From Dictyostelium discoideum (lineage: Eukaryota), in the NCBI GenBank assembly GCA_000004695.1, contig CM000152.2:1920001-1984000 (forward strand): 64,000 nt of DNA, in the 5' to 3' direction. Below the pieces are notes generated by a model. That model saw nothing but the letters and a program-made list of their open reading frames with translations. It had not been told where the DNA came from and made no database searches. The translations under genes were made by a program, and so were the position numbers. Of the stretch, positions 1,668-51,995 are shown piece after piece (position 1 is the stretch's first letter; the number at the start of each line of letters is the position of its first letter).

Positions 1668-4569
1668 ATGTATCATATTATTTCGTCAAACATAAATAAT
1701 ATTAATAATAAATCAAATAAACCGAATGATAATAAAAATGATAAAACTAAATTTAATTCAAAGATCTTAGTGATTGTATTGATTGGTATAATATTCCATG
1801 CAGTATTCACATTAAGTATTTTTGATATCTATTTCAGATCACCATTAGTACATGGGATGACACCACATCCTATTAATTTACCAGCTCCAGCAAAAAGATT
1901 AGTTTTATTTGTTGGTAAATATTTAATATTACTATTCCACACCAACCCCTTTAAATTTTTAAAATTAAATAAATAATCATTTTGCAATAAAATACTAATA
2001 ATATTTTCATTTTTTTTGGAAAAAAAAAAAAAAAAAAAAAAAAAATAAAAATATTGGATTCCGATTTACATTTATGTATCGTTTTGGAAAAAAAAAAAAA
2101 AAAAAAAAAAAGCTGATGGATTAAGAGCAGATAAATTTTTTGAAATTGATGAAAATACAGGTAAATCTAGATCACCATTTTTAAGAAATATAATTGAAAA
2201 TAAAGGAACATGGGGTATTTCACATACAAGAGTACCAACAGAGACAAGACCAGGACATGTTGCATTGATAGCAGGTTTCTATGAAGATGTTAGTGCGGTT
2301 ACAAAGGGATGGAAAGCGAATCCCGTAGAATTTGATCATCTTTTCAATGAAACTACCTATTCATTTGGTTATGGTAGTCCAGATGTTTTACCAATGTTTT
2401 CAGAAGGTGTACCACATATGCAATCAGAATCCTATCCAGAGGAAGCAGAGGATTTCGCATCAGATGCATCAAAATTGGACACTTGGGTATTTGATAAAGT
2501 TCAACAATTACTATTAAATGCCTCAACCAATGATCAAGAATTGAACAGAAAGTTACGTTCAGATAAAGTATCAATATTCTTACATTTATTAGGTTTGGAT
2601 ACAAATGGTCATGCATATAGACCAAATTCAAAGGAATATTTTGATAATATTGCTTTGGTAGATAGAGGCATTGAAAAGATAGTAAAGTTAATCGAAGATT
2701 TCTATGGTAATGATGGTAAGACAGCATTTGTTTTCACTGCAGATCATGGTATGAGCAATAGAGGTTCACATGGTGATGGTGAACGTGCAAACACAGAGAC
2801 ACCATTAGTCGTATGGGGTAGTGGTGTGAGAGGTCCGTTATCATCAGATCTTCAAATGGAGAGAATTGCATCACTTCGTGGCAAAGCAAAGGAGATGTTA
2901 CCAGTTAATGTAGAAACACCAACCAATTGGAAACTATCATCATTGTTCCGATCAGATGTATCACAGGCCGATATTGCACCATTGATGACCTCATTGTTGG
3001 GTGTGCCAAGTCCATTGAATTCAGTGGGTGTATTACCCACCGAAATCTTATCCGAAGATACACCACAATATACAACTGCTGCATTACGTGCAAATACCTT
3101 ACAAATTTGGGAGATGTACAAAATTAAATCTTCCTCTAAACAGCAAAGTACCCTCATATTCTTTTCACCATTCACAAAGTTAAGCGATGCCGATAGAATG
3201 TTTGAAAGAATTGAGCAACATATTAGCCTCTCACAATGGGAAGATGCACAAATCCTATGCCATCAAATGATCGATCTCTGTTTAATGGGTTTAAATTATT
3301 TCCAAACCTATGACCGTCCCTTTCTTATGACCGTAATTACAATGGGTTATTTTGGTTGGATCATTACACTCTCACTTTATGTATTAAACAATTATACCTC
3401 AATTGGCATAGAGAATTGTAATCAACAGAAATTAAGCACACAAATGAAAAGATTCAAAACTTTATCAAATTATTTAATCTTTATCGAAAGTATTGCATTG
3501 GTTGGATTCTTATTGGCAACTGATGCTCCATTACTCTATTATCTCTATTGTGTGTTTTTAGTATTGTTTTGGGCGAAAACCATTCCATCGAATATTGTAC
3601 CATTATATATTTTCATTTGCGATTCTTTCTCACAAGTCTCTTCAACTCGTGGTCATTTCATCAATACAAATAATAGCGCAAACCTTTCAATCATAAAGAA
3701 TTTCATCATATTATCAGTCTCTGCCATCTCTGTTATGGAGTTATTGGTTGTCTCTTATTTCCATCGTGGTGTACTCTCTTTGTTATATCAAATTTTAGGT
3801 GTAGTATCTGTGTTTTTCTTTTACAATCGTTCTGGTGCTGGTAAAACTTCAACTTTATTAAAATCACTTTGGCTCATATCTTGCCTTTTAATGTCAATTT
3901 TCCCATCATTACCAATCGATTATGGTAGTGATACAAAATTGGTTTGTTTTGGTGGTATTTTAATTTCAATTTTAGGTGTTTTAACAAGTTTATTTAAATT
4001 TAGAAATAATTCAAAACAACAACAACAATCATCATCATCATCTCAACAAAAACTACAAAAATCAAAGAAAAATCAAATTATAAATTCAATTTTAATCATA
4101 TCAATTTTATTATCAAGTTTCATAGTTTATACTACAGATTCATCATTAGAGAAAAAGATTGGTTTACCATTCATTAATCAACTCTTAAGTTGGATCTTAT
4201 TGGTATCAGGTGTTCTCATTTTAGCAATCTATAGAGGTAAAGGATTTTATGACCATTGGACTTTCTTATGTCTTAGTCTTTCAATTCCATTCCTTTTATT
4301 ATCAATCTCTTATGAAGTACTCTTTTTTGGAAATTTAATTTTAAATTTAACACTTTGGATGTATTTTGAATTAAAGGTTGATAATGATCATACAATTCCA
4401 AAATTAGTTTCAATAACTCCAAATTCTGAACCTTCAACTTCTCTTTCTTTCTCAAAATCTGCTTCAAAATCAAATTTAATGAATATTACTCAACATGATA
4501 TCAGAAGAGCTATATTTTATGTATGTATTTTTTTAAATAATGAAAAGAAAAAAAGTAAAACAAAATATT

Positions 4570-4625
<56 letters not shown>

Positions 4626-8579: not shown

Positions 8580-10787
8580 TTATCTTCTATATCTATATCT
8601 TTTGAAATTAAACCAAAGATGAAGTACACCTTTATCATCGAAAACACATTTGTAACCATATTTATGAGATTTTTCCCATTCTTTTTTAACGATTTTGAAA
8701 GCAATATCTTCATAAGGTGGACCGGCACTAAATCTTAGTATACAAGTGTCTGGATTATCAGGTGATGGTGATACAAAATATTGAGGTGATTTGGTAGTAT
8801 CAATAAGATCTGGATAAAAGATATTGAATTTATAACCTCTGACAACCTTTGGAGGAGGATTATCATAATCATAATGAGTACGATTATATTTAGTCCAGTC
8901 ATAACCAGTATGTACTCTATTGAAGAATCTTGGTTTTCTTGGTCTATGTTTATCATGCCAAGCATAATATTTTTGTTCTAATGGTACTTCTAAATCAAAT
9001 TGTTCTTCGAAATCATTATCTTCATCAAATTCATCTTTAGTTTCTTTGTTTTTATAATTACTATTATTATTATTATTATTATTGTTATTATTTGTTGATG
9101 TTGATGTAGTATTACTTTGATTATTATTGTTATCATCTGTATTTTCACTGTTAAATGGTAAATTCATATCATTTGCAACACCTTTCAAATATTTCTCGGT
9201 TTCCATTTCTGAAAGTTTCAATTTAAGATTTTCTGTGAATCTTTCAGACAAGAAAGAAGATGCTTTATACATTTTCAAATGCTTTAATAAAGTTTCCCAA
9301 TATTCAACATTCATTGCAGAACCAGATTCTAATTTCTTGATAATATCAACCTCTAAATCGCATAGTTCCTTATATGATTTACCAGATAGAATTGATTTAA
9401 TATTTGGTGTCAATGAATGATGTAATGCAGTCGAATCACCAAAACCACTACCATTACCATTCCCATTACCATTATTATTGGTTTCATTATTTTTACTTTC
9501 AATTAATTGTAGTTGATAATTTGTTAATTCTAAAGCAGCATCCCAAAATTCTAAATTACTTTTATCATTATCTAAATAAGTGAATTCACGTAAACCTTCA
9601 ATTAATTCTTCAAGTTCATTAGTGGAATCTAAAGATTGAATTAACATTACAGGATCACGATTACCTCTATAGTCGAATGGTAATGATTGCATGTGAATTG
9701 CTCTATAGAGGTAATCCAATGGTTTTGAACGATTATCTAATAGACGTGATTCACAACGTTTACAAGCTTGAATGAAATGAAATTCCTCTTCTTTTTTTTC
9801 CAACTCTTCATTGTTTGACATATCTCTCATACGTTGTAAACGTTCTTTCTCTTCTTCCCAAATTTCTTTTTCCTTTTCACGTTGTTCACGTTTTGCTTTG
9901 GCCTTTTCAATTTCTTGTTGAATTTCTTCTCTTCTCTTCTTTCCAAATTTTTCATCGTATTCACTTGGTTTCATACCATCTTTAATCAACTTATCTCTTT
10001 TTGCCTTCCAAACGAATTTCTCTTGTAAATTTACATCATTGAATGGATTGGTCATATTTGAATAACCAGATAAATCTAAACCACTCTTTTTATTCTCTTC
10101 TTTTCTTTGTTTCTTTTCTAATCTTCTCTTTCTTTTCTCTTCTGGTGTTTCTCTAGCTTTTCTTTCTTCTTTTTCTTTCTTTTCTTGTTTCTTTCTTTTT
10201 CTTCTTTCTTCTTTACTCTCTTTATTTGATGTTGATGATGTTGATGTTGATGATGATGATTTTCTTTTTCTTTCATAGTCACTATCATCGCTTCCACTAC
10301 TACTATCACTATCACTATCACTATCGCTATAATCTTTTCTATTTCTTTTATAACTTGATGATTTTTTATCTCTTGATCTTGATCTTGATTTTGATCTATC
10401 TTTTTCAGAAGATGACTTTTTCTTATCTCTGGATCTTGACCTATCTCTATATTTTCTATCTCTGTCTATGTCTCTACTTCTATCTCGTTCCTCACTTCTA
10501 TCTCTATCTTTTTTATTTCTCTCCTTACTTCTATCTCTATCTCTTTCTCTATCTCTTTGGTTTTCTTTGTCTCTGCCTCTATATCTGTCCCTTTCTTCAC
10601 TTCTATCTCTGTCTCTATCCATTCTATCTCTTTCACCATCCCTATCTCTTTCTCTATCTCTATCTCGATCTCTTTCTCTATCTCTATCTTTTCCCCTATC
10701 TCTTTCTCTATCCCTATCTCTTTCTCGGTTTCTATCTCGGTCTCTATCTTTATCGTCACTCATTTTTATGAAAATATAAAAAGACAA
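8580..10787 (-). CDS. cactin: Cactin homolog (spliceosome-associated), single exon. The true start is probably the second Met at 10763.
   Basis: The C-terminal domain [43 protein letters not shown]...[34 protein letters not shown]...[12 protein letters not shown] is near-identical to the cactin C-terminal domain. The N-terminus is RD/RE/RS dipeptide-rich, as in cactin. There is a mid-protein coiled coil. Confidence 0.85.
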
Positions 10788-17621: not shown

Positions 17622-20600
17622 AATTTAATCACAATTTAATTAATTTATTATTATTTTTTTAAAATAGATACATCTTTTGCTGGTAATATAATTGTTTCAA
17701 ATTTTAATAAATATCCAAGTGATTGTACAGTTTTACCATATGGACAATGCGTAGTTTTAATAGATTTAATAATGAATTCTACAAATTATTATTTATTATC
17801 AAATAATACTAATTTGGGAAATCCACAATTAGTTTCAGGTACTGAATTAAGTGGTAAATACTATTTATCGATTCCTCCAAGATTTGGATCATCAGGAGGT
17901 GTTTCAATTGGTTCTTTTGAAAATGGATTATATACAAGGTATATTTTAAACTTTCCAGTAGCTTATACTTATCCTCCAGCTCCAGCAATAGTTAATTCTG
18001 TTTTTACATTACAAACTCTAGATGGCAAAACAGTTCAATTTGGTGGTCAACTAAATAATTCTTTCCCATATTTTGGTGATTTATATTTTTCAAATAAAAA
18101 AGGTGGACCAAATAGACCAAATACAAAAGCACCATCTTGCTATCCTTATCTTGGTGGTACAAAAGATAAATTAATGTTTTCCTTAATCTTACCAATATCA
18201 AGTTATTCAAGATCAGTTTCACCCTATATGGCAATCTCTTATACGTTTATGAATTTAGTTGGTACAAATTTTAATTTGGTGACACAAATAACACCAACTT
18301 TAACTGGTGATACAACACCTCCAGTAATTGAAAATTTTGAAATCTTTGAAAATCCTTCAAATCCTGATGAAGTTATAATTAGAATGGATATTACCGATCA
18401 AGTTAGTGGTGTTCGTTATGTTGAAATTTCGTGTGGTTTTGGTTCATTACAAACCTATATTTACAGAGGTGATTCCACAGATTTAGTTGAAGGTACTATT
18501 TTTAGTGGTGTTTATCAATTTTCAATACCAAAATACTATACACGTGACCGTATTTCCATGTATATAGTTGATAATGCTATCAATGTTCTTTACCTTTCAA
18601 CTTATTCAGTATATAAGGGATTAAAAAGAGTTGAACCTTTCCCATATCCAGTAATAACACTTTTAGATATTGGTAATGTTTACTTTGAAAAGAATGATTT
18701 AGATCTATCAAATAATGGTGCTGATAATATTCTATATATTCAATTAAAGAATAATACTATAAAGAATCTATCATTCTCTTTGGTACCATTTTTTAATATT
18801 GAAGATAAAACACCAGATTTAACTATTGCAAATGAAGATTATTTCTATGGCAACCGTAAAAATTATCAAAGTAAATGGAATGAAACTTTACAATTGTATC
18901 AAATTGAATTCACAATTCCAGCTCGTTTACCAACTGGTGTGCTATCATATAATATAAATCCAGTTGAAAATTTAAATAGTGCGGTATTATACTCAATGTT
19001 TGGTACAAATAGTGAATTAAGAGTAAAAAGTAATGATTGTGATATAATGGGACCAATTGTTAGCTCTTTTCAAGTGACTCCAAGTTCAACAGTCACCATT
19101 CCAATTTCACCAACTCAATCTACAATGATTGGTTTTAACTTTTTAATTGAGGATCATTTAAATGGTATCAATAGTGTTTATATCACAATTGCTTCAAATC
19201 TTGATTTAGTTGGTTATGAATTTAAATTTGAAAATATTACAGGTACTCCATTACAATATTCTGTTGATGCAAAATTCCCAATTCATTCATATGATAAACC
19301 ACAAACATATACCATTTCAAATTTTAAAACAATTGATGGCCAAGGTTTCGTTGCAGAGTATCCAAATTTGGTAAAAGTTAATCCATTGTTTAAATTTATA
19401 AATAGTGGTCAAATATCAATTTCAACCATCAATGATGTGATTGGAAATTATATTCAAGATACCACACCACCACTTTTAACAAGTTGGAATGTTTCAAAAC
19501 AAACAGTACAAGATTTGGATAATATCTTGTTATTTGATTTCACAATTGAAGATTTAGAATCTGGTGTTTCAATTGTAAATAATCCATCAGTTATAATAGT
19601 TTGTGATAATAGTTTACTAATTGAAGGTAAATCAGAGATTATTTCAACAGTTCCAAATAGCAACAATCAATACATTAATAAATCCATAACTTATAGAGCT
19701 AAAATTACAGTACCATTTTTATTTGGTTATCCAAATGGTATCTCTTTAGGATTATACGGTATTTATGATAATCATCGTAATTTAAATGGTTTTGATGCAA
19801 AGAAATTAAATTCATTAGGTTTTCAATTTTTTGTAAATGCTCCATATGGTCAAAGTAATTCAATCATTACTTCATTATTCTATAATAGTGATGGTTTTAT
19901 TATTATTGAAGGTTTGAAATTTGGTATTAATCCAAAAGTTAAATTAATTAATACTCTATCAGGTGAAACTGTTATAAAAGCAATCCCAACTCCATACATT
20001 AATAAAACCATTATCTATTTAGATGCAATCGAATTTAGAAGTTCTTCACTTTCAAATGGTTTTAGAGTATATGTATCAAATAATGGTGTAGATTTTTCAA
20101 ATGATTTATTTGTTACCTTACCTGTAATTCCAACTGAATCACCAACACAAACTCAAACACCAACACAAACTCAAACACCAACACAAACTCAAACACAAAC
20201 ACCAACACAAACTCAAACACAAACACAAACACCAACACCAACACAAACTCAAACACCATTACCAACAAATACACCATCACCGTGCAAAGGTAATCCAATT
20301 TGTGGTGGTAATGATCAAGGTAAATGTACAAAATTAGGATGTGTTTGTATATTACCTTATTTTGGTGATGATTGTTCATCAAAGGTTATTATTGACATTA
20401 AGCCAACAGTTAATGAAACCCAACCACAAGTTACTATACCATATGAGCAAATTAATACAAAAGCAAAGGTATCAAGTTTAGTTTCAGTCTATTCTCTAAG
20501 AGAAATTGATTTTAATGGTAAAATAAAAAATGAATACCTTCTCGGGGAATGGGATTATGAAGTTCTCTCTGATAATGAATTTAAATATTCAACTGAAATC

Positions 20601-21278
20601 ATTAATAAAAACAATGCATCAAGTAGTACTAGCATCATTGCAATTATTAAAAAATTTGAAACTACAACTGATATAGTTTTTGCAAATGAAAAGATAACGA
20701 TGCTACCATCAACAATGAAATATTATATCAACATTTCAAATTATCAATTCATTAATGAATTACATAATTTAAATTTAGTTATGTACACATCGATATCAAC
20801 ATCCCAAACTGATGACGTTTGTTCAGCTAGTAGTTTTGGTGATTCATCATCACAATTGTCATCTCAATATATAAAGATTCAAATCAATGACGTCAGTCTC
20901 TATGGTGAATTCATTAAACGTGCTATAGTTGATGGTAGAATCATTGGGGTTTCCAATAGAAAACTAGATGAGGAATTATCATTAAATACTGGTAATAATG
21001 CACACACTTTTATTGCTATTGAAATTCCAAATTATAAAGATTCAATTGAATTGGATCCAAACTTTAGTGTACTATTAGAATCAAATTCACCAACTGATAA
21101 TTCAATTTGCAATAGCAATAATTCTGGTTTATCTAAAACCCAATTAATTGGTATCATTATTGGTTCAGTTTTCTTTGCTGTTGTTATTGCAATTGGTGTT
21201 ACTTATTTAGTTTTTAGAAATTCAACTTCACTTCGTATTAAAGCAAGATCTTTTAAATTAAAACCATTTAAAAAATAA
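16670..21278 (+). CDS. Large secreted/type-I membrane glycoprotein with a signal peptide, one EGF-like 6-Cys module, a (TQTQTP)n linker and a C-terminal TM anchor. Exons 16670..16727, 16818..17147, 17258..17578, 17668..21278.
   Basis: The signal peptide MNKMFFKIFILIILINFISG is followed by donor G|GTAGGT. Three short introns have GTAAGT donors at 17148 and 17579 and acceptors at 16816-17, 17256-57 and 17666-67, all frame-consistent with the 1168-aa distal ORF. The EGF-like module is CKGNPICGGNDQGKCTKLGCVCILPYFGDDC. The TM segment is LIGIIIGSVFFAVVIAIGVTYLVF, with a short basic tail. There are many N-glycosylation sequons. Family assignment (tgr/lag-like adhesion protein?) is uncertain. Confidence 0.6.
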
Positions 21279-21565: not shown

Positions 21566-24500
21566 TTAATTACCAAAAGATTGAAGTTTAAATTCATTTA
21601 AAAGTGGAGCAACAATTGTAAAAATTGAAGGACTATTTTTTGAAAGATTTGTAAAGAAATCAGAGAGATATTTAAGTAATTCAATATGATAGATTGGATC
21701 AGATTTTGAAATGATTTCAAAGGCATCTTCAGTGAATTCATCTTGTAAGTATTGGGCAAGATCATCATTATCATCATCACCAGCATAATCGATCATATGA
21801 GCGTATTCTTCAGCAGGGGCAAAACCATTTTCATCAACATTTGGATATCTCTTTGAAGTGGTTTCTTCATCATCTTCATCATCTTCATCCTCATCATCAT
21901 CATAGTCTTCATCAGAATCGTGATGATCTTGTGGTGTTGAATTTGCAGTACCATTTGAATTTTTAGCTAATTCCTCTTTCTCCAATTTAACAGTCTCTAA
22001 AAGATTTTCCATTATTTTGTTAAAGAGATTTACTTTTGTCCATTCTTCATTTAAACCGCCATTATATTGACTTTTCTTTCTTCTAATATCACGAGTTGAA
22101 CGATCTGGAATGATTTGTCTACCATCAATATTGATTGATTCTAAACGTGGATCATTTAAAGATACCAATGTACACATCGCAACGACTGAAACGTTATTTT
22201 CAAGTTTTGATGTCATTTCTAAATGATATTTTTGCCATTCATTTAAAACAAACACAAGTGCACTACCATTACCATTTGGACCAGGAATAGCGGCTAAATA
22301 ATCGATGATTGTAGTTTTATGTTGAATGATTAAACGAGCGAAAACTGAAGAGAAAGCTCTCTTTGTTGATGGTAATTTACAATTGTAAAATGCTTGAAGT
22401 GTAGATTCAAACAATGGTACTGTTTGAGCACCAATGATTTCACTATGTTTAACTAAAAGAGCACTGATGATTGATGGTACTTCAACATGAACCAATTCAT
22501 CAGTTTCAAAGAGTACACGTCTTAAAACCAAAAACAAACCATGTAAACCATTGATAGTGGTTGTTGTTGGTGTTGGTGTTGGTGGTGTTGCAGATTGAGT
22601 ATTTGAAGCACTAGTAAAAGTCCATTTCAACAAGAGATCGGATGAAGTTTTATAAACGAATGGTAAGAGAGTACATAATGATGCCTTGAGAATACCTCTA
22701 TTGGCTTGACAATCGCAAGTTAATAGAATATTTAAAATTGGTGAAAACAATTGATCCAAAAGGAATGAATCAATTTGTTGATCAACATTTGCAATCAATA
22801 GAGAGAGTACATCGGCAGCGGAATCGGCAATAGGATTGTACATTGGGTTTGTGTAATCGGAAAGGATGATATTTAGAGTTGGAATCATACGTTGTAAAAT
22901 ACCAGGATAAGATTTTGGACAAGCACAAATGATTTGGAAAATCTCTTTCAAAGCATCGCTAAACATTGGATCATTTCCATAGTTTATCCAAGCTTGTGAA
23001 AGATGAGGTATTAATAATGGTTCCAATTTGCCAGTGATATCCTTATCGATTTTAACCAACATTTTAATACAATCCAACACCAATAATAAACTATCCTCTG
23101 ACAATTGATTAATCATTGAAATCAATGCTTGAACTGTGGATGGAATATAATCTACAATGGATTGAGCGGAAATCTTTGGAGCAAAACTACCAATTGCCAT
23201 AACAGCAGTTAATTTCAAAGTGACTGGAATATTTTGAGTGATTAAAACGACTGCTTGGTTAAAGAATGGTAATGAAATTGAAGGATCGACTAATTTTGCA
23301 AATTTACTAGCACAAATCAATGAACGACCACGTAAAATCAAAGATCCTTGATCATTCTCATTGAGTGTACCTTGAAAATCTTGAATTAAATTGGTTGAAA
23401 GGAATGAAACTGCATCAAATTGTTTAATCTTTGATAATTGTTGAGATGAATCACAAAGGGCAACCAATGCAGCCTCTCTAATTTTCCACCATGAATTTGT
23501 ATTTTTGCTGTTTTTATTCTTTTCCTCTTGTGCTTTTATTAATGTCTCTGAAATGACTTCAAAGAGATATTTTGAACCTTCAGATTTATAAGTTTCACAC
23601 ATTGATTGAACCAATGAAGTTGAGACAACTCTTGGAGTATAAGTGGTATCATCTTCATTCTCTAAGAATAAATTTGGATCACTATCCCAAAGTTCAACCA
23701 ATTCATAGTTCATTTGCATATATTGAATAGAGTTTGCAAAGATTGGTTTCAAAAAAGGTTTGAATAATGGTGCCAATGTTTGATTGGAAACGATTTGTTG
23801 CATGAAATCAAAGATTGATGATACTAAACGATCGATCTTTGTGATACCTTCCTCTACGAAATTAGAAACTATACCATGCACTGGATTGATTTCAACCTTT
23901 TCATAGATTGGATAACAATTGTTAAAGAGTGTCCAAATTGGTGGTAGTATCTCTTGAATATATTTCGAGGTTTTCTTTGGGAAATCTTGAATTAACATTG
24001 TGAAGATCTCAACCATCGCTGACATTATAGTGAAATAATGATTGATATGTGGTGAACCTAAATCCAATACCCTTGATAAATGTCCCGTAAAAATGGGTAC
24101 CCATGTTGAAATGAATGGAAATAATGCCTTTGACAAACCTTTGGTTACACCCTTCATATAGGTTAAATGAGTCACTGTTGATCTAAATACATTAATAATT
24201 CTAATATGAATCATTGGATCAATATCTTTACCTAATAACTCTGAAAATACTGGATAAACTTGTTTAATTAATATTTCAATTTGTTCTTCTGATATATTAC
24301 CATCTTGTGGATCACATAATAATTCTAAACATCTAATTACACCATGTAATAAATCATTATTATTATTATTATTTGTATCATTATTATTTACTCTATTTAA
24401 ACATCCAATTAATTCGTCAACTAATTCTGGCCAATCATGTGGCCATTCATATGCTCCAATTTTCGCAATACACATTGCCTATTATTAAATAATAAAATAA

Positions 24501-25986: not shown

Positions 25987-30187
<4,201 letters not shown>

Positions 30188-31806: not shown

Positions 31807-32334
31807 ATGAATAATACAATCAAAAGTATTAAAATTTTTAATGTTGAAGATTTAAATGGAAAAAAAACAGAATTAGTATGGGTGAATGGACAATTGGTGG
31901 AAAGTTCATCAAAGTCAACTTTATTAAAACTCATATCTGATAAAAAAAGATTTTCAAATAGTCAAAGCTATGAAGAAATCCTTTCAAAATCAAAAATTAT
32001 CTTTAAAGAATATGTTAAAAAAATGACAGATAATGGAAAAATTAAATTAAAAAATTTCAAATATGAAAATTGTAATTGCCAAATTTGTTTAAATGAACCA
32101 CCTATAATTATTAAAGATAAAGATCCTCCAAAAAGTGCATCAACTTGGATAGATTATATAAGAATGTATGATTTTTTCAAAATCAATAAAACAATTTTTT
32201 AATAAATAAATATATATTGCTACTAATATTTCCCTCTCTCTCTCCCAGATCAATGTTTTGTTTAAATAAACAACAAAAATTAAAGATTGATCAAAAAGAA
32301 CAACAATGTAGAAATAAAATAAAAGTAAATGAAA

Positions 32335-32397
<63 letters not shown>

Positions 32398-32957
32398 GTA
32401 ATGGTAATATAGGTGGATATATTGAAAATGGTAAAGAATATTTTATCAATACAAGAGATTTATATGAATATATGGAAGCACATAAAGGATTATTAGAAAT
32501 AACTCAATCATTTCAAACTTTTCAACCAAGGGATATTAGATTAGCTCTTTGTCAATGTTTAAGTTATAATTCAAATATATTTAAAAGTGGTAAAGATTAT
32601 TTAGGTGTTGGATTTTGGACTTTACATGATGTAGATGATGATCCTTGGTACGATATTGATATACCAGATGATATACCCACTCAACGTTTAGTAAATGGTA
32701 AATTAATGCCAATTTGTTTAGCTCAAACTCCAAAAGGTTATTGTCAAAAAGTTGGTACTTGTCCACATCATCAAAAATGGAATAAATCAATGGCTGAATC
32801 TGATAGTGAATCTGAAGATAATCATGAAAATAAAATAATTTTAAAAGGTAAAAATATAAAGAAAAATAAAGAACATGAACATGAAATAGAGGAAACAGAA
32901 GAACAAGATGAAGGAGAAGAAGCAGAAGAACAAGATGAAGGAGAAGAAGAGGGAGAA

Positions 32958-32988
<31 letters not shown>

Positions 32989-33986
32989 GGGAAGAAGAGG
33001 GAGAAGAAGAGGGAGAAGAAGGAGAAGAATTTTCACAACTAACAATTATAGAACAAGAAGATGAAGAAGAGTATGAAGAAGTAGGAGAAGAGGAAGAAGA
33101 GGTAGAAAATGATGAACAAGAAGAAAATGAAGGAGAGGGAAACAAAGAATATGTAGATAGTGATTATGGTGATGAAAATGTTCAAACATACAACCAAGAT
33201 GAAGAGTGCGAATACGAAAATGATAATGATGACGAACAGTATGAAAAAGAACATTATTATAACGATGATGGCGATGATGATGAAGAATATGAATATTTAG
33301 ATGATTATGATGATGATGATGATGATGATAAAAATGATGATGATAAAAATGATGATGATGATGATGATGATGAAGTAGTTGATTGTTATAGTAATAGAAA
33401 TTATGATAGGGAAGAAATAGGTTTTGATATGTATTCATTAGGTGGAAAATGTAAAAATTTAGAACCAACTAAAATAGAGAAAGAAATAATGCACTCTTTC
33501 TCATTTGCACCAATTTTAAAAAAAGTTTTGGAAGAATATACAAATGAAACTCAAAAAGAGATACCAACGGAATTACATTTATTACCAAGAGAATACACAA
33601 GATTTATGATTTTAAAATTCATAGATAACGATATGAAAGTTAAAGATATAACACTTGTTAGTTTACAATCACCAACTTTAATAACAAAATTTTGGTATCA
33701 TCATCTATCCTTCACTCAAATGTATAATCAATTTTGTAAATTACTAAAAACTAAAATTTATAGTTATCCCAATATCTATAATGATCCATTACCAATTCAA
33801 AGGAAAAGGTATCTTAGAACTTTGAAACTTTATAGACACTATTTCATCTCTAATAAATATAATAATAATGACTCTGTTTTTACATTCACTAAAAAATTAA
33901 AAAAAAACTCAATCCCAATTAATAATCTTGTTTCTCATCAAAATTTACCATCAATTATATGGCCATTAGATTTATTCACACCTTAA
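31807..33986 (+). CDS. Hypothetical protein with poly-Asn and a long acidic (EGEE)n block. Proposed exons 31807..32165 and 32249..33986.
   Basis: ORF1 ends ...WIDYIRMYDFF, but donor AT|GTATGA at 32166 and a polypyrimidine-rich acceptor (tccctctctctctcccAG at 32247-48) join it in frame (ATA=I) to SMFCLNKQQKLKIDQKE... The second ORF has no ATG before 32253 unless spliced. I recognise no domain. Confidence 0.45.
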
Positions 33987-34713
33987 ATAAATAAATAAAT
34001 AAATAAAAAATATAAATTATTAATAAAAAAAAACAATTGTATTATTATCATTATTTATTAATCTGAAAAGTGGAGAAATAAAAATAAAAATAAAAATAAA
34101 AATAAAATTAAATAAAATTAAAAAAATAAATGTATTTTTACATTCTATTTTTAAACTTTACACACACCCCTTTAACTTTTTTTTTTTTTTTTTCTCACAT
34201 ATTATTTTTAAATGTTAACCTATTTTTGTTTCACCCTTTTTTTTTGTCATTTGTTTTATTATTCTTTTTTTTTTTTTAATTTCAAACTGTTGTGAATGCA
34301 ACATTATTTTATTTTTTTTAACACTATTAGCTCCAAAATGCCATAAATCATCACACTTCAACAATTATTTTCGTACATGTCATTTCCAAAAATGACTAAA
34401 GTGAGAAATTCAACCACTCTCATTACAATTATTATAATTTTTTTTTTTTTTTTTATAATAATAAGATTTAATTTCGATTTAAATTTAATTTCACAAGCAA
34501 TAAAAAAAAAAGAATAAAAATAAATTTTATAAACAAAAAAAATAAAAAAAAAAAAAGTATAAAAAAAAATTATTTCAAACATTAATTATTAAAAAGATAA
34601 AATAAAAAAAAAAAAGTTAAGACCAACAACTTTTTTTTCTTTATTTTTTTTTTTTATTTTAAAAATTAATTTTTCCTATCTTATTATTAAAAAAAAACTC
34701 TGTTTAATTAAAA

Positions 34714-35838
34714 ATGGCAAGAACGGATAATGTTCAATTACCTTTGGAAAATACAAGTATTGAATTTGAAGAAGAGATTATTGATTCCCAAAATGACATA
34801 TCACAACAAAAAAATTATCAAGATTTTTTAAAAAATATTCCAACTGATTTAAATGAAAGAAAAGAGTATATTTCATCTTTGAAGAAATTAATCAAACTTG
34901 AAAAAAGAAATCATCAACAAATTCAGGGTGAGCAACCAAATCAACAAGAAGGTCTCAATAGTGATCGTCCACCACCAAACCATCATGGTGACCATCACCA
35001 TTCTCTACCTCCTCCAAATCATCATGGTGACCATCATCACCATTCTCAACCCCCACCAAATCATCATGGTGATCATCATCACCATTCTCCACCTCCACCA
35101 CACCATCATGGTGGTCATCACCATTGTCCACCACCACATCATGGTGGCCATCACCATTGTCCACCCCCTCCACCACACCATCATGGAGGCCATCATCACC
35201 ATTGTCCACCCCCACCACACCATCATGGAGGTCATCATCACCATTGTCCACCACCTCCACCACCACACCATCATAGTCATCATCACCATTGTCCACCACC
35301 TCCACCACCACATCATCATGGAGGCCATCATCACCATACTCCACCACATCCTCCACCACATCACCATGGAGGCCATCACCACCATTGTCCACCATCGCCA
35401 CACCATCATGGAGGCCATCATCACCATAGTCCACCACCTCCACCACCACATCACCATGGGGGCCATCATCACCATTGTCCACCTCCACCACATGATGGCA
35501 ATGAATATCTACCACAATCTCAAACTAATATTGAACAATGTATCTGTCGTTTAAATAGAAAGAAAGAATTATTAATTGCAAAGATTCAATCTATTGATTC
35601 AATAATTTACAATTTGGAATGTTTAAACAAACAAAATTACCAAAACAATTATTTACCATCAATTCAACTACAACCAACCCAACAACCACAACAACCACAA
35701 CAAACATCAATTAAACCACAACAAATGTGTCAACAATTTTTTATTCCCCAAACTCCAAATTTCCCCCAAATGAACAATTCTGCACCACTAATGTATGTCT
35801 CTCAAATTCCAGTCCAACAATCATTCAACAATAATTAA
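34714..35838 (+). CDS. His/Pro/Cys-rich tandem-repeat protein (about 15 units of PPPP-HHHGGHHHH-C) with a Q/N-rich C-terminal tail. Putative metal-binding protein.
   Basis: A single 374-aa ORF. The repeat block is 34970-35500. The first 3 units read PPNHHGDHHH(H)S, the later units CPPPP(P)HHHGGHHHH. The N-terminal 90 aa and C-terminal 110 aa are non-repetitive. Overlapping antisense and alternate-frame ORFs on the track are repeat artefacts. Confidence 0.6.
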   Translation: MARTDNVQLPLENTSIEFEEEIIDSQNDISQQKNYQDFLKNIPTDLNERKEYISSLKKLIKLEKRNHQQIQGEQPNQQEGLNSDRPPPNHHGDHHHSLPPPNHHGDHHHHSQPPPNHHGDHHHHSPPPPHHHGGHHHCPPPHHGGHHHCPPPPPHHHGGHHHHCPPPPHHHGGHHHHCPPPPPPHHHSHHHHCPPPPPPHHHGGHHHHTPPHPPPHHHGGHHHHCPPSPHHHGGHHHHSPPPPPPHHHGGHHHHCPPPPHDGNEYLPQSQTNIEQCICRLNRKKELLIAKIQSIDSIIYNLECLNKQNYQNNYLPSIQLQPTQQPQQPQQTSIKPQQMCQQFFIPQTPNFPQMNNSAPLMYVSQIPVQQSFNNN

Positions 35839-35943
35839 ATGTACACAATAATCTTAAATAAAATTATTATTTTTATTCTTTACATTTAAATAAAAAAAAG
35901 TGATTTGTGTAAATTCTTTTTTTTTTAAAAAAAATAATTTAAT

Positions 35944-36344
35944 TCAATCACAGACTGTGTAAATTGTTTGACATTGTTTTAAAACATTAACTGTCTCTTC
36001 TCCACATTTTTTCATTGAACATGAATTTTCACCAAAGTAAGGGTAATCATAAAATTCATTTGAAAAACTACATTTATTTGAAATGATACAAATATCTCTA
36101 ACTCTTTCAGCATATTTACATTCATTAGTGTTTTTCTTTTTTGGATGACAAGTATTTGTTACACCATTACAAATTCCATAATCACCACATCCATCTTCTG
36201 TACAATTTGTTGTGTTTGGAATTTCAATTTCAATACATTTTTTAAACTCTTGATAACTTTCATCTTCATTAAAAAATTCATTAAATGTTTGACACTATTT
36301 TAATGTTATTATAAATGAGTATTTAAATTAATATTTTTAATTTT

Positions 36345-36397
<53 letters not shown>

Positions 36398-37080
36398 ACA
36401 CCTAATCCTAAATCACATTCATTATTAGTACTACAAGAATCATTTATTTTTTTTGAATATCTTGAAAGACAAATTCCATCTTTTGAACAAACACCACCAA
36501 TAAAGCAATCGGAATCATATGAACAATTTCCTCCTAATGATGATAATTGTGTACATGATGAACTACAATTAGTAATATCGTCTTCACAATTGTTAAGATT
36601 ACATGCTTGTGTTCCTGGACATGTGAAATAACCTAAACAATTAATTTTATCATATTGTAAAGTTTCATTAAACCAAAATGTGCATTTTGAATTTATACAC
36701 TTAAGATTAAATTGACCCATTCCAAAACAATCAAAATCCGAATCACAATCTTCACCAAGTCCAGCATAATTTGCAGCCTTACAAGTATATGGAGAACCTA
36801 CTTCAAAATCCAATGGAAGACATTCAAGACCAATTTCACATGGACCCAAGTATTTCTCTTTACACTTTTCCCCAAGTTTTAATTTTGGTTTACAAACATA
36901 CTCTGATTGTTCATTATCATCATCAATTGGTAAACATGCTAAACCATAACCACATGAAATATCAATGCCATAAGATTGTACACATGGATGGCCTAATGAA
37001 AAACATTTGCTCTCATTAAAGCAATGTGAAGAATTTATTAATGAAACTATTACAAATATTAATGATAATATTAATTTCAT
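35944..37080 (-). CDS. Small secreted cysteine-rich protein. Exons 37080..36400 and 36294..35944.
   Basis: The signal peptide MKLILSLIFVIVSLINSSHC is followed by a 227-codon Cys-rich exon (about 40 Cys). Donor GLG|GTAAGT lies at 36399-98; the ORF track's poly-K tail is the intron poly-A. Acceptor ttaaaatAG at 36296-95 leads to CQTFNEFFNEDESYQEFKKCIEIEIPNTTNCTEDGCGDYGICNG...QTIYTVCD and a stop. Confidence 0.6.
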
Positions 37081-37559
37081 ATTTTTTTTAATTTTTTTTT
37101 ACTTTTATAATTATTAAATCTTATAAATATTTAATTTTAAATTGAAATAAAAAATAAATAAAAAAAATCCATATTTATATCTTTTTTTTCTAAATAATTT
37201 TAATTTTATTTAATTAAAATTTAATTTAATACATCTTTATTTTTAAAGAAAACAAGCAAAAAAATTTTTTTTTTTTTTTTTATTCATTTTTGTGTTTCCC
37301 ACATGGATAAGAATATTCCCAAAAATTAAAAAAAAAAAAAAAAATTCTTCTTAACAAGATTAAACCCAAATAAATGAGAATATATACCAAATAACAATTT
37401 CTTTTTTAATCATTTTTTGAAAAAATTTTTTGTTCTCTTAAAAAACTTTTTATCTTTTTTTTTTTTTTTTTTTTCCTTTCTGTTTTTTTTTTTTCTCTTA
37501 AAAAAACTTTTTATCATTTTTCTTTTTTTTTCCTTTCTGTTTTTTTTTTTATGAAATGA

Positions 37560-38694
37560 TCGAAATATATAAAATTAAGTTATAACTATGAAAATATTCC
37601 AGATATACAAATTACTAATGGTGAAAATGATGTTATTTTTAAATATGTTTTTAAAAATGGTAGGGACAAGAATAAACAACCTTCAAATTTATCTTTAGTT
37701 TGTTGGAATTGGTTTCAATTAAATTCAAAGCTATTCTATAAAATAGGAAAAATAAAAATTAAACAGAAAACATTTAATAATATTTTATTTTATCACGAAT
37801 ATCTTCCATATAATAGAAACATTAGAAACAAGACCACCTTTTACTCTCCAATCAAATCTCAATTTCAAGGAAAAAAAGAAGAAATTGATTCAACCAAATT
37901 TTCAAAATATAAATTATTAAATTTTAATTATGTTCAAAGTGTAAATTCATATCTACTTCCATTAGAATCAATATTTAAAACTTTTAAAAATATTAAACAA
38001 ATAAAATTATCACTATTCTTACTTCCAATTGAAATTGTATTAGATAGTATAAAAACAATTTTAAAATATCAAACAAAAAATGAACTTTCATTTTATTTAG
38101 AATATGAAACTAAAAAACTACCAGATTCAGTGGATTCATTAATTATGGAGGAATCCACTAGTAAAGAATTTTATTATTGTGATTATTTACTATTTAAAGC
38201 ACCAAACATTTATAAACAAAAAATGTTTAGACAATTGAAATTTATCGAGTTAATGAATCCAATAAAATTACATCTAAAATCATCACATCATTCTTTTACA
38301 AAAGAATTTTTCAATGGTTGCAATACATTGAAAAGCTTTATTTTTGGTGGTGATTTTTTGGAATTACAATCTTTAAATATGGCAATTGAATCATCAAGTT
38401 TAATAGAAACCATTAAAGCAAAGTTCTTATTTCATGATTTACATTATCATTTAGAAGATCCAACGTTTGTTAATGGAACTCAATTAGAACCACTATATCG
38501 ATTCATTTCCATGTAGTTACTATAAACCTGAAGTACCTTATGATTATTCATTTACAAACTATTTCAATCATTTTAAACGACTTTGTGAAAATCTTAAAAA
38601 TACTAAAACTTTAAAACATTTGAATTTAAATAATTATTGTTATAAACCAATTTCAAGATGTAAAATTAGATCCAAACCAAATAATAATAATAGA

Positions 38695-38763
<69 letters not shown>

Positions 38764-39219
38764 TTATGTAATTCAAATTTATATTCAAGTTTTTTTAATT
38801 CACTTGAATTAAATAGTTCATTAACAAAGTTAGTAATTTCAAATTGGAGTTTTGAAAATGAAACACCAGGATTAATAGATTCACTTTGTAATAATAAATC
38901 AATTATAAACCTATCACTAACTAATGGTGCATTAAGAGGTGATATAGATTTACCATTAGTTTCTAAATTATTAATATCATCAAGTACAAATAGAATTTTT
39001 ATATTAAATATATCATTTAATTATTTCACTGATATTGATAATTTAATTAAAATTATTAATGATTCAGAACCAAATTTAAATAGATTATTAATTTTAAAAA
39101 TTAATGGTTTTTGTCAATATTCAATGCTTGATAATTTAACAATAGTACGACCACAGGTTAAAACAAAAAATGATATCAATAAAACTTGTCAATTTGAATT
39201 AAAAATTGTCAAAAATTAA
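37560..39219 (+). pseudogene. LRR-like protein locus with a broken frame. Frame-0 ORF 37560..38516 lacks any ATG. A frame+1 ORF 38487..39219 overlaps it by 30 nt and contains leucine-rich repeats.
   Basis: Frame 0 is open for 319 codons after the TGA at 37557-59, with no ATG/TTG/GTG/CTG until 38130. Frame +1 opens at 38490 and runs through PCSYYKPEVPYDYSFTNYFNHFKRLCENLKNTKTLKHLNLNNYCYKP...LELNSSLTKLVISNWSF...INLSLTNGALRGDIDLPLVSKLLISS...ILNISFNYFTDIDNLIKII (LRR consensus LxxLxLxxN). No AT-rich intron-like sequence separates the two frames. Confidence 0.35.
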
Positions 39220-50489: not shown

Positions 50490-51995
50490 ATGATTGGAAC
50501 AATTGCAGTTTTAGTAATTGCTATTTTAGTAATTTTTGCTTTCAAAAAGGTATGACCATTTATTTTTTTTTTTTTTTTTTATTTTTTTTTTTTTTTATTT
50601 TAAAATGTCTTCCAAAAACTAATATTTTTAATATATTTTTAATTTTTTTTTTAGAGTCCAAGTAATATTCCACCAATTGTTGAAACCATTCCATTCATCG
50701 GATGTTTTTATCAATTTGCAAAGAATCCATTACAATTAGTTCGTAATAGTTATGATAGATTAGGTGAAATTTTCACACTCCATTTAATGGGATTCAAAAT
50801 GACATTTGTTCTTGGACCAGAGGCACAAGCATTATTTTTCCGTGGTACCGATGAAGAACTCTCACCAAAGGAAGCTTATAGATTTGTAACACCAGTATTT
50901 GGTAAAGGTGTTGTCTATGATAGTGAAACAGAGATTATGTATGAACAACTTCGTTTCGTAAAGAATGGTTTAGTTTTATCACAATTGAAGAAAGCAGTTG
51001 GTATCATTCAAGAAGAGACTGAAAAATATTTCGAAACTAAATGGGGTGATTCAGGTGAAATCGATCTTTTATATGAAATGAATAAACTTACCATTCTCAC
51101 TGCATCTCGTTGTCTTATGGGTAAATCAATCAATAAATCATTGGGTCAATCAGGTCAACTCGCTGACTTGTACCACGAATTGGAAGAAGGTCTCAATCCA
51201 ATTTCATTCTTTTTCCCAAATCTCCCATTACCATCATTCAAAAAGAGAGACGCTGCCCGTGCTAAAGTCGCCGCCATTTTCCACTCTATCATTCAAGAAC
51301 GTAGACGTTCAACTGACGATAGTGTCGATGATGTCCTCTACACCCTCATGAACTCCAAATACAAAGATGGTTCAGTCCTCGAAGATGAACAAATCGTTGG
51401 TCTCATGATTGGTTTATTATTCGCCGGTCAACATACCTCTTCAATCACCCTTACTTACACCATTTTCTACCTCCTCAACAATTTAGAATATTTCGATGAA
51501 ACTCAAAAGGATATCAATGATATCGTTCAAAAAGAGAATCAAGGCGAAATCAATTTCGATGGTCTCAAGAGAATGAATCGTTTGGAAACTGTAATTCGTG
51601 AAGTTCTTCGTCTTCATCCACCTTTAATTTTCCTCATGAGAAAAGTTATGACTCCAATGGAATACAAAGGTAAAACTATCCCAGCCGGTCACATCCTTGC
51701 TGTTTCACCACAAGTAGGTATGCGTTTACCAACTGTCTACAAGAACCCAGATAGTTTTGAACCAAAACGTTTCGATGTTGAAGATAAAACTCCATTCAGT
51801 TTCATTGCTTTCGGTGGTGGTAAACATGGTTGTCCAGGTGAAAATTTCGGTATCCTCCAAATTAAAACCATTTGGACTGTTCTCTCCACTAAATATAATT
51901 TAGAAGTTGGTCCAGTTCCACCAACTGATTTCACTTCTTTAGTTGCTGGTCCAAAAGGTCCATGTATGGTTAAATATTCAAAGAAACAAAAATAA
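50490..51995 (+). CDS. cyp51: Sterol 14-alpha demethylase, cytochrome P450 family 51 (CYP51). Exons 50490..50549 and 50655..51995.
   Basis: The membrane anchor [20 protein letters not shown] is followed by donor GTATGA at 50550-51 and acceptor ttttttAG at 50653-54. Exon 2 ([84 protein letters not shown]...[13 protein letters not shown]...[36 protein letters not shown]) is near-identical to CYP51A1 ([38 protein letters not shown]). Confidence 0.9.

Follow-up and report, generated by a model that had tools for sequence, protein, structure and literature searches.

The window (the whole 64,000-nucleotide stretch of DNA that was analysed) has a GC content of ~22% and carries poly-Asn-coding tracts, consistent with a dictyostelid genome, and positions 34714–35838 hold a genuine protein-coding gene of a Dictyostelium discoideum-group amoeba. 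The 374-aa ORF of the preliminary description was confirmed there on the plus strand, with the ATG start as described. This ATG sits in a AAAAATGG context, 3′ of an intergenic stretch rich in A/T tracts, and the encoded protein (~42.9 kDa, pI ~7.0) contains 80 His (21%), 69 Pro (18%) and 11 Cys (2.9%) residues. The features of the gene, with the evidence for each in parentheses, are as follows:

34420..34713, plus strand: AT-rich upstream intergenic region, presumed promoter and 5′ UTR of the gene (long A and T tracts and the AAAAATGG start context, read from the sequence)
34714..35838, plus strand: complete CDS, single exon, 374 aa and stop (ORF list, orthologous gene models)
34828..34926, plus strand: N-terminal family motif, aa 39–66 (LKNIPTDLNERKEYISSLKKLIKLEKRN), and predicted helix, aa 46–71 (seven-member alignment, AlphaFold, hhalign)
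34969..35499, plus strand: His/Pro array, aa 86–262 (Tandem Repeats Finder, unit table, composition, pLDDT, dN/dS)
35521..35646, plus strand: conserved C-terminal amphipathic helix, aa 270–311 (...ICRLNRKKELLIAKIQSIDSIIYNLECLNKQ...) (AlphaFold, alignment, heptads)
35650..35835, plus strand: Q/N/P-rich disordered tail, aa 313–374, poorly conserved (composition, pLDDT)

Three further ORFs of 162–218 aa, read in other frames or from the complementary strand, overlap the array; they exist only because the repeat is stop-free in those frames, lack the conserved flanks and were discarded. Upstream, on the plus strand, lies a gene (32217–33986) encoding a poly-Asn tract and low-complexity stretches of great length that are rich in Glu/Asp, for which there are models of 650 and 693 aa at the syntenic loci L001 and L002. 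Downstream, a convergent gene on the minus strand (35941–37080) encodes a Cys-rich protein with a signal-peptide-like N-terminal segment (MKLILSLIFVIVSLINSSHC...) and no Pfam match. It is kept in L001 and L002 (models of 343 and 342 aa) and likely contains an intron, since its ORF runs into an A-tract encoding poly-Lys. Several other ORFs of the window could be assigned through Pfam, with no evident functional link to the His-rich gene:

2265–4571: PIG-N
8580–10787: cactin
17772–21278: ComC-like protein with DUF7035/7034/7743
21566–24475: importin-9
27187–28980: condensin Cnd3
50787–51995: cytochrome P450
56625–57989: protein kinase

Exact look-up of the His-rich protein and eight other long ORFs of the window found no match in a collection of 15 billion proteins, a Pfam search at E up to 10 assigned it to no family, and searches of PDB sequences with the protein and with a profile of its flanks found no relative. 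Literature searches for the HHHGGHHHH motif, and for a histidine-rich protein or metallothionein of Dictyostelium, did not find the gene. The database name “Uncharacterized histidine-rich protein DDB_G0274557” could be that of the window gene.

The array is built on the consensus unit P(3-6)-(N/H)HH-G(G/D)-HHH(H)-(C/S/T), present in 12 full copies and one partial copy, and Tandem Repeats Finder confirmed it at 34972–35492, with periods of 42, 48 and 90, ~12 copies and 74–82% matches. Both the ~15 repeats and the 39–45-nt unit length first reported have to be revised, the former to the count in the unit table and the latter to 33–48 nt (11–16 aa). Units 1–3 read (S/R)(L/Q)PPPNHHGDHHH(H), units 4–12 read (C/S/T)P3-6HHHGGHHH(H), and the last is shortened to CPPPPHDG. 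Six prolines occur in five of the twelve full units (as PPPPPP, or PPHPPP in one). Altogether, the 177 residues of the array comprise 79 His, 55 Pro, 20 Gly, seven Cys and four Asp/Glu, with no Lys or Arg. A degenerate DNA pattern for HHHGGHHHH had nine matches in the window, all of them within the His/Pro ORF, and none in 100 shuffles.

Conserved sequence flanks the array on both sides. The N-terminal 90 aa, called ordinary in the preliminary description, proved to be an 85-aa pre-repeat region with a conserved family motif and helix. The Q/N/P-rich tail that was said to follow the repeats is indeed present (23 Q+N and 10 P in 62 aa), although the conserved predicted helix at aa 270–311, which had been missed, intervenes. 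AlphaFold, run with the family alignment, places confident helices at aa 28–40, 46–71 and 270–311 and has low confidence elsewhere. The pLDDT is 83–86 for the helix at 46–71, 82–94 for that at 270–311 and 32–42 for the tail, and values below 50 predict the array to be disordered. The pTM is 0.20 for the window protein and 0.27 for P0011, an array-less family member that shows the same two main helices, and so low a value (only 0.27) does not allow intramolecular packing to be claimed. In the C-terminal helix, 8 of the 12 a/d heptad positions are hydrophobic, so that it could form a coiled coil. The window protein has neither a signal peptide nor a transmembrane segment (maximum Kyte-Doolittle(19) value of 1.12), and its N-terminus is acidic, from which we infer a cytosolic or nuclear location.

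Two proteins match the window protein over their full length, namely P0001 (356 aa; labelled D. discoideum, GCA_054859355.1) and P0002 (294 aa; labelled D. cf. discoideum, GCA_054859205.1), and both have single-exon models. The word-index homology search through which such proteins were sought is lossy, as one query missed P0001 while others recovered it. The loci L001 and L002 are syntenic with 24.4–47.5 kb of the window, at 85–93% DNA identity. The CDS is intact and a multiple of three in all three genomes (1122 nt in the window, 1068 and 882 nt in the others), and a single frame is kept throughout while the number of units varies, from 12 in the window to 10 in P0001 and 8–9 in P0002. Window units 8–12 are collinear with units 6–10 of L001, the closest orthologue, at 92–98% DNA identity. 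Since the mean identity between units inside the window array is 78%, most of the array is older than the split between the species, after which no more than a few units were gained or lost.

Selection on the array is evident from the same comparisons. Across the three orthologue pairs, dN/dS (Nei-Gojobori) was 0.11, 0.11 and 0.08 in the array and 0.60, 0.57 and 0.56 in the flanks; some of the aligned units are possibly not strictly orthologous, which leaves the excess of synonymous over non-synonymous change unaffected. Of the array differences, 18 of 26, 35 of 56 and 37 of 54 lie at third codon positions, whereas the flank differences are distributed evenly among the three positions. The array, at ~0.1 against almost neutral flanks at ~0.6, is therefore the constrained part of the protein. 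The proposal that this is a maintained coding repeat, and not a product of recent slippage, is thus borne out by the preserved frame at 12, 10 and 8–9 units, the third-position bias, the low dN/dS and the collinear units. A non-coding microsatellite was discarded on the frame and codon-position evidence.

An internal control is provided by a segmental duplication at L004 10400–12300 (D. cf. discoideum, GCA_054859205.1, JBTAPH010000042.1), which covers the 3′ part of the His-rich gene and the downstream Cys-rich gene and is 91% identical to its parent, L002. The His-rich fragment in this copy (annotated as P0003, 129 aa) is truncated and frameshifted, contains stop codons and has broken His clusters (HRHCCHHHH, HHHGSHHPH). 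It is probably a pseudogene, and it shows how an unconstrained array decays.

More distant relatives were recovered with profiles. An exhaustive HMMER search of 1.84 billion representatives with a full-length profile of the three orthologues gave seven matches at E up to 0.001, the four weakest of which (E 1e-5 to 5e-4) are unrelated repeat proteins. P0004 of D. dimigraforme (230 aa) was found by this type A profile, the type of the window protein, at E 1e-6. A flank profile that included P0004 then recovered P0009 of D. firmibasis (253 aa), P0010, P0011 of D. citrinum (134 aa) and fragments. P0010 lies on the same contig as P0001, and its true ORF is 198 aa long (L005 10001–10597). In pairwise comparisons, tblastn with P0004 matched the window at 34819–34908 (E 3e-7), BLASTP of the window protein against P0009 gave E 5e-4 over the C-terminal helix segment, and hhalign aligned the array-free flanks of type A with the type B alignment at 98% probability (E 2.5e-13), collinearly across the His insert.

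Two elements mark the family so defined: N-terminally, the motif N(I/L/M)P(T/S/N)DxxERKxY and after it a Lys-rich helix that closes with EKR, and C-terminally, the helix I..LNRKK..L.AK.Q.I(D/E)S.I..L..LN. The window protein possesses both, as NIPTDxNERKEY and LNRKKxLIAKIQSIDS. Residues P43, D45, E48, R49, K50, Y52, E63, K64 and R65 of the motif and I277, L280, N281, K283, K284, Q292, I298 and L301 of the C-terminal helix are invariant in all seven members. Six of the seven (the window protein, P0001, P0002, P0004, P0009 and P0010) carry a His/Gly-rich array between the same helices, which makes His-richness older than the duplication that gave rise to types A and B. Type B units read PGHHFGGHHGH and have neither proline runs nor a boundary Cys, and so the prolines are derived and the His conserved. 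Synteny with the window is lacking at the type B loci, so that the two types are paralogues and not positional orthologues; the genomes of P0001 and P0002 each contain both. The tail, too, differs in type B, and it is shorter in P0002. P0011 (L007 10001–10405) has both helices and no His array; the helices may thus be functional by themselves, or else this copy lost its array. No member of the family was detected outside the D. discoideum group, either among the 1.84 billion representatives or in the flank-profile searches, and Pfam gave nothing above noise for any member.

The status of the Cys residues is clarified by this comparison. As was first suggested for the units in general, a Cys follows most of them (7 of 12), yet Ser follows four and Thr one. 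The further claim of regular Cys spacing is weakened, as Cys alternates with Ser/Thr both within and between species (the three type A arrays contain seven, six and three Cys) and has no counterpart in type B.

A name for the family comes from rigA (RasD-induced gene A, DDB_G0274655) of D. discoideum, the qPCR primers for which are printed in PMC11379915. These match the P0004 gene at L003 10272–10292 (+) and 10388–10407 (−), with one mismatch each, and delimit an amplicon of 136 bp, the reverse primer encoding HHGHHFG. On the strength of this primer match, by which rigA was placed in the family, the type B genes are rigA orthologues and the window gene is a rigA paralogue. At the sequence level, then, the window gene belongs to the rigA family. 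The preliminary description had allowed that the termini might match a known family that explains the repeats; they do match one, and this family shows that the His array is an old feature which its members share. The functional class of His-rich repeat proteins is already well known. The rigA-family assignment, the definition of the family by a helix–array–helix layout and the demonstration of stronger constraint on the array than on the flanks are new here.

What has been published on rigA concerns its expression and its genetic interaction with RasD (PMC6251973, PMC11379915), and no paper on its biochemistry was found. The gene is heterogeneously expressed in growing cells, peaks in multicellular development and responds to medium pH (PMC6251973, Gruenheit et al.), and its expression shifts with medium pH and with imidazole treatment (PMC6251973, PMC11379915). 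RasD/GefE-dependent expression in vegetative cells characterises rigA. Knockout of rigA causes no phenotype alone, but suppresses the prestalk bias caused by RasD(G12T) (PMC6251973). The rigA orthologues P0004 and P0009 have in common with the window protein the collinear motif and helix, the His/Gly array, the C-terminal helix and the tail. Proteins of the rigA type share an N-terminal xNxP(T/S)DxKERKxY and a C-terminal LNRKKxxLIAKxQxIxSKI, and their arrays and that of the window have the common core P-HH-x-GG-HH-x-H. They differ in that the rigA unit is ~11 aa long (PGHHFGGHHGH) while window units are 11–16 aa with P3-6 and C/S/T, and in that rigA-type proteins are 198–253 aa long and end in ...IDSVIGSFSQM, whereas the window protein is 374 aa with a Q/P-rich tail.

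Other His-rich or metal-binding proteins offer looser parallels. The His-Pro-rich region of vertebrate plasma histidine-rich glycoprotein (HRG), with its GHHPH repeats, binds Zn2+ and protons, thereby switching ligand binding. The likeness between HRG and the window protein, both with disordered tandem His/Pro/Gly repeats, is one of composition and not of homology: HRG is secreted and has two cystatin-like domains, whereas the window protein has neither a signal peptide nor such domains, and its unit is P3-6-HHHGGHHHH-C/S. Bacterial Hpn, Hpn-like, HypB, SlyD and UreE, which store Ni/Zn, carry dense runs of consecutive His, sometimes with Cys, and are low-affinity, high-capacity metal stores. 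Unlike the window protein, the Hpn-type proteins (60–75 aa, nearly half His) and tails have no proline spacers and no flanking helices, and the exhaustive profile search of 1.84 billion representatives found no Hpn or Hpn-like homology. Hisactophilin is a cytosolic, folded beta-trefoil of ~118 aa, N-terminally myristoylated (MG...), the His content of which serves as a pH sensor. The window protein, in contrast, begins with MART, and its model has helices and disorder only, with no strands. Metallothioneins resemble it in the proposed role of a cytosolic high-capacity Zn/Cu buffer, but are small, with ~20–30% Cys (CxC/CxxC) and few His or aromatic residues, as against 2.9% Cys at unconserved positions and 21% His. 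Since it lacks these defining features, the window protein falls outside the HRG, metallothionein, Hpn and hisactophilin families. The H domain of AdcA has repeated clusters of 5–6 His and binds Ni-NTA (PMC3001460), within an arrestin-FYVE protein and with only three clusters. Neither hisactophilin nor AdcA shows the helix–array–helix layout, and Pfam and the exhaustive profile search detected no similarity to either. In PMC6251973, rigA was likened to HRG.

The reading favoured here, to which we give a probability of roughly 40%, is that the window protein would act in the cytosol as a disordered array of imidazoles, with reversible binding of Zn2+, Cu or Ni2+ and a charge that switches with pH, its two conserved helices serving for oligomerisation or for the binding of partners. 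The layout runs from an acidic N-terminus through a basic helix, the 177-residue array, predicted to be disordered, and an amphipathic helix to the Q/P tail. Within the array, 12 His-tag-like HHHGGHHHH clusters, kept apart by stiff proline runs, could form a multivalent ligand field of imidazoles, with some thiolate, for which protons would compete with the metals. Metal load and net charge (from ~0 to ~+79) would then track the metal level and pH of the cytosol. The array Cys, swapping with Ser, would be an optional extra. Since the family conserves the two helices and a His/Gly-rich array, the array is under the tightest constraint within type A, its charge is set by His protonation only and its units are His-tag-like, a reversible array for metals and protons is favoured. 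The precedents are chemical: clusters of the His-tag kind bind Ni, Zn and Cu, as in the behaviour of His6 in IMAC, and a natural poly-His domain, that of Dictyostelium AdcA, purifies on Ni-NTA (PMC3001460). Classical metallothionein activity is reportedly not detected in Dictyostelium (10.1101/356949).

Several observations speak against the favoured reading. The Cys residues are unconserved, swapping with Ser/Thr and being absent in type B, and the core function of the family may not need the array at all, given that P0011 has both helices without it. Dictyostelium proteomes are rich in low-complexity tracts without known function, and the almost neutral flanks (dN/dS ~0.6) look as they do in young lineage-restricted genes. 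Moreover, the known biology of rigA is one of cell-fate bias and medium pH, not of metals (PMC6251973). In a possible, if somewhat unlikely, alternative account, the protein is a pH switch or proton buffer with no metal role, sensing or buffering cytosolic pH and binding acidic partners (membranes, actin, nucleic acids) when protonated. With 79 His, four Asp/Glu and no Lys/Arg, the array would be uncharged above ~pH 7.5 and strongly cationic below ~pH 6, a behaviour with parallels in hisactophilin and in the His-Pro-rich region of HRG. The response of rigA expression to medium pH and imidazole (PMC6251973, PMC11379915), and the modification by rigA knockout of a fate bias classically tied to intracellular pH (PMC6251973), point the same way. 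However, the pH link concerns rigA transcription and not protein chemistry, and the same imidazoles can bind both metal and protons.

It is also conceivable, though unlikely, that the array is a low-complexity scaffold in which His is secondary, with the proline runs acting as polyproline-II ligands for profilin, SH3, WW or EVH1, or with the His/Q tracts driving localisation to condensates or nuclear speckles. The six-proline runs in 5 of the 12 units and the disordered, Q/N-rich tail would suit such a role, and His tracts reportedly target proteins to nuclear speckles in other eukaryotes. Type B, however, keeps the His/Gly clusters without proline runs, and no interaction domain or NLS was identified in the window protein. 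A lineage-restricted low-complexity gene of little or no function, whose array persists through mutational inertia, might be expected to look like this one in being detected in D. discoideum-group genomes only, in having flanks with dN/dS ~0.6 and differences even over codon positions, and in varying its unit number between species with no Pfam or PDB relative. This explanation is nevertheless quite unlikely, as the array has dN/dS ~0.1 with a third-position bias in three of three comparisons, the frame is kept over 882–1122 nt in three genomes while the known unconstrained copy (L004) has decayed, and the paralogue rigA has a genetic phenotype (PMC6251973). The Cys at unit boundaries could in principle cross-link, together with His and metal, a secreted structural or matrix protein of the spore coat, stalk or slime sheath. 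His-rich, metal-cross-linked structural proteins do exist in other organisms, but the acidic N-terminus and the lack of any hydrophobic segment, together with the poor conservation of the Cys, make this most improbable, and a secreted protein was discarded because a signal peptide is absent.

If the array does bind metals or protons in vivo, then the amoeba would have a histidine-based counterpart of metallothionein, and rigA, already in use as a marker of cell-fate bias, would gain a testable mechanism. It is tempting to go further and suggest that the rigA family, including the paralogue in the window, could be a histidine-based cytosolic Zn/Cu (and proton) buffer in an organism reported to lack classical metallothionein activity, and that, via rigA, it could make the RasD-dependent bias between stalk and spore responsive to metal and pH in growing cells. 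As a whole this proposal is doubtful, yet, if correct, it would open to molecular study the long-established connection of intracellular pH with cell fate. Should no function emerge, the protein would simply join the many other lineage-restricted low-complexity proteins that the genome encodes. The family is, in addition, a clean natural case in which a disordered repeat is under tighter constraint than the structured sequence on either side.

Some minor observations concern the assemblies. The deposited, spliced model of P0010 (262 aa; L005 10001–11533, GCA_054859355.1) appears over-extended, and the 198-aa ORF at the same position ends in the manner typical of the family (...IESVVGTFSQM). 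In D. dimigraforme and D. firmibasis, the neighbour of the rigA-type gene is a triose-phosphate isomerase gene, whereas the type B gene of L005 adjoins a RasGEF gene. With more than three mismatches, the AX2 rigA primers fail to match the type B gene in the D. discoideum-labelled assembly. The species labels on the new assemblies may misstate their relatedness to AX4, and labels as well as orthology (L003, L005, L006) merit checking. Finally, alignment of window positions 37400–39210 with L001 and L002 is poor or lacking; an ORF in this stretch (38620–39219) encodes a long poly-Asn tract and leucine-rich-repeat-like sequence, and the stretch may represent an insertion specific to the lineage or a rapidly evolving gene.
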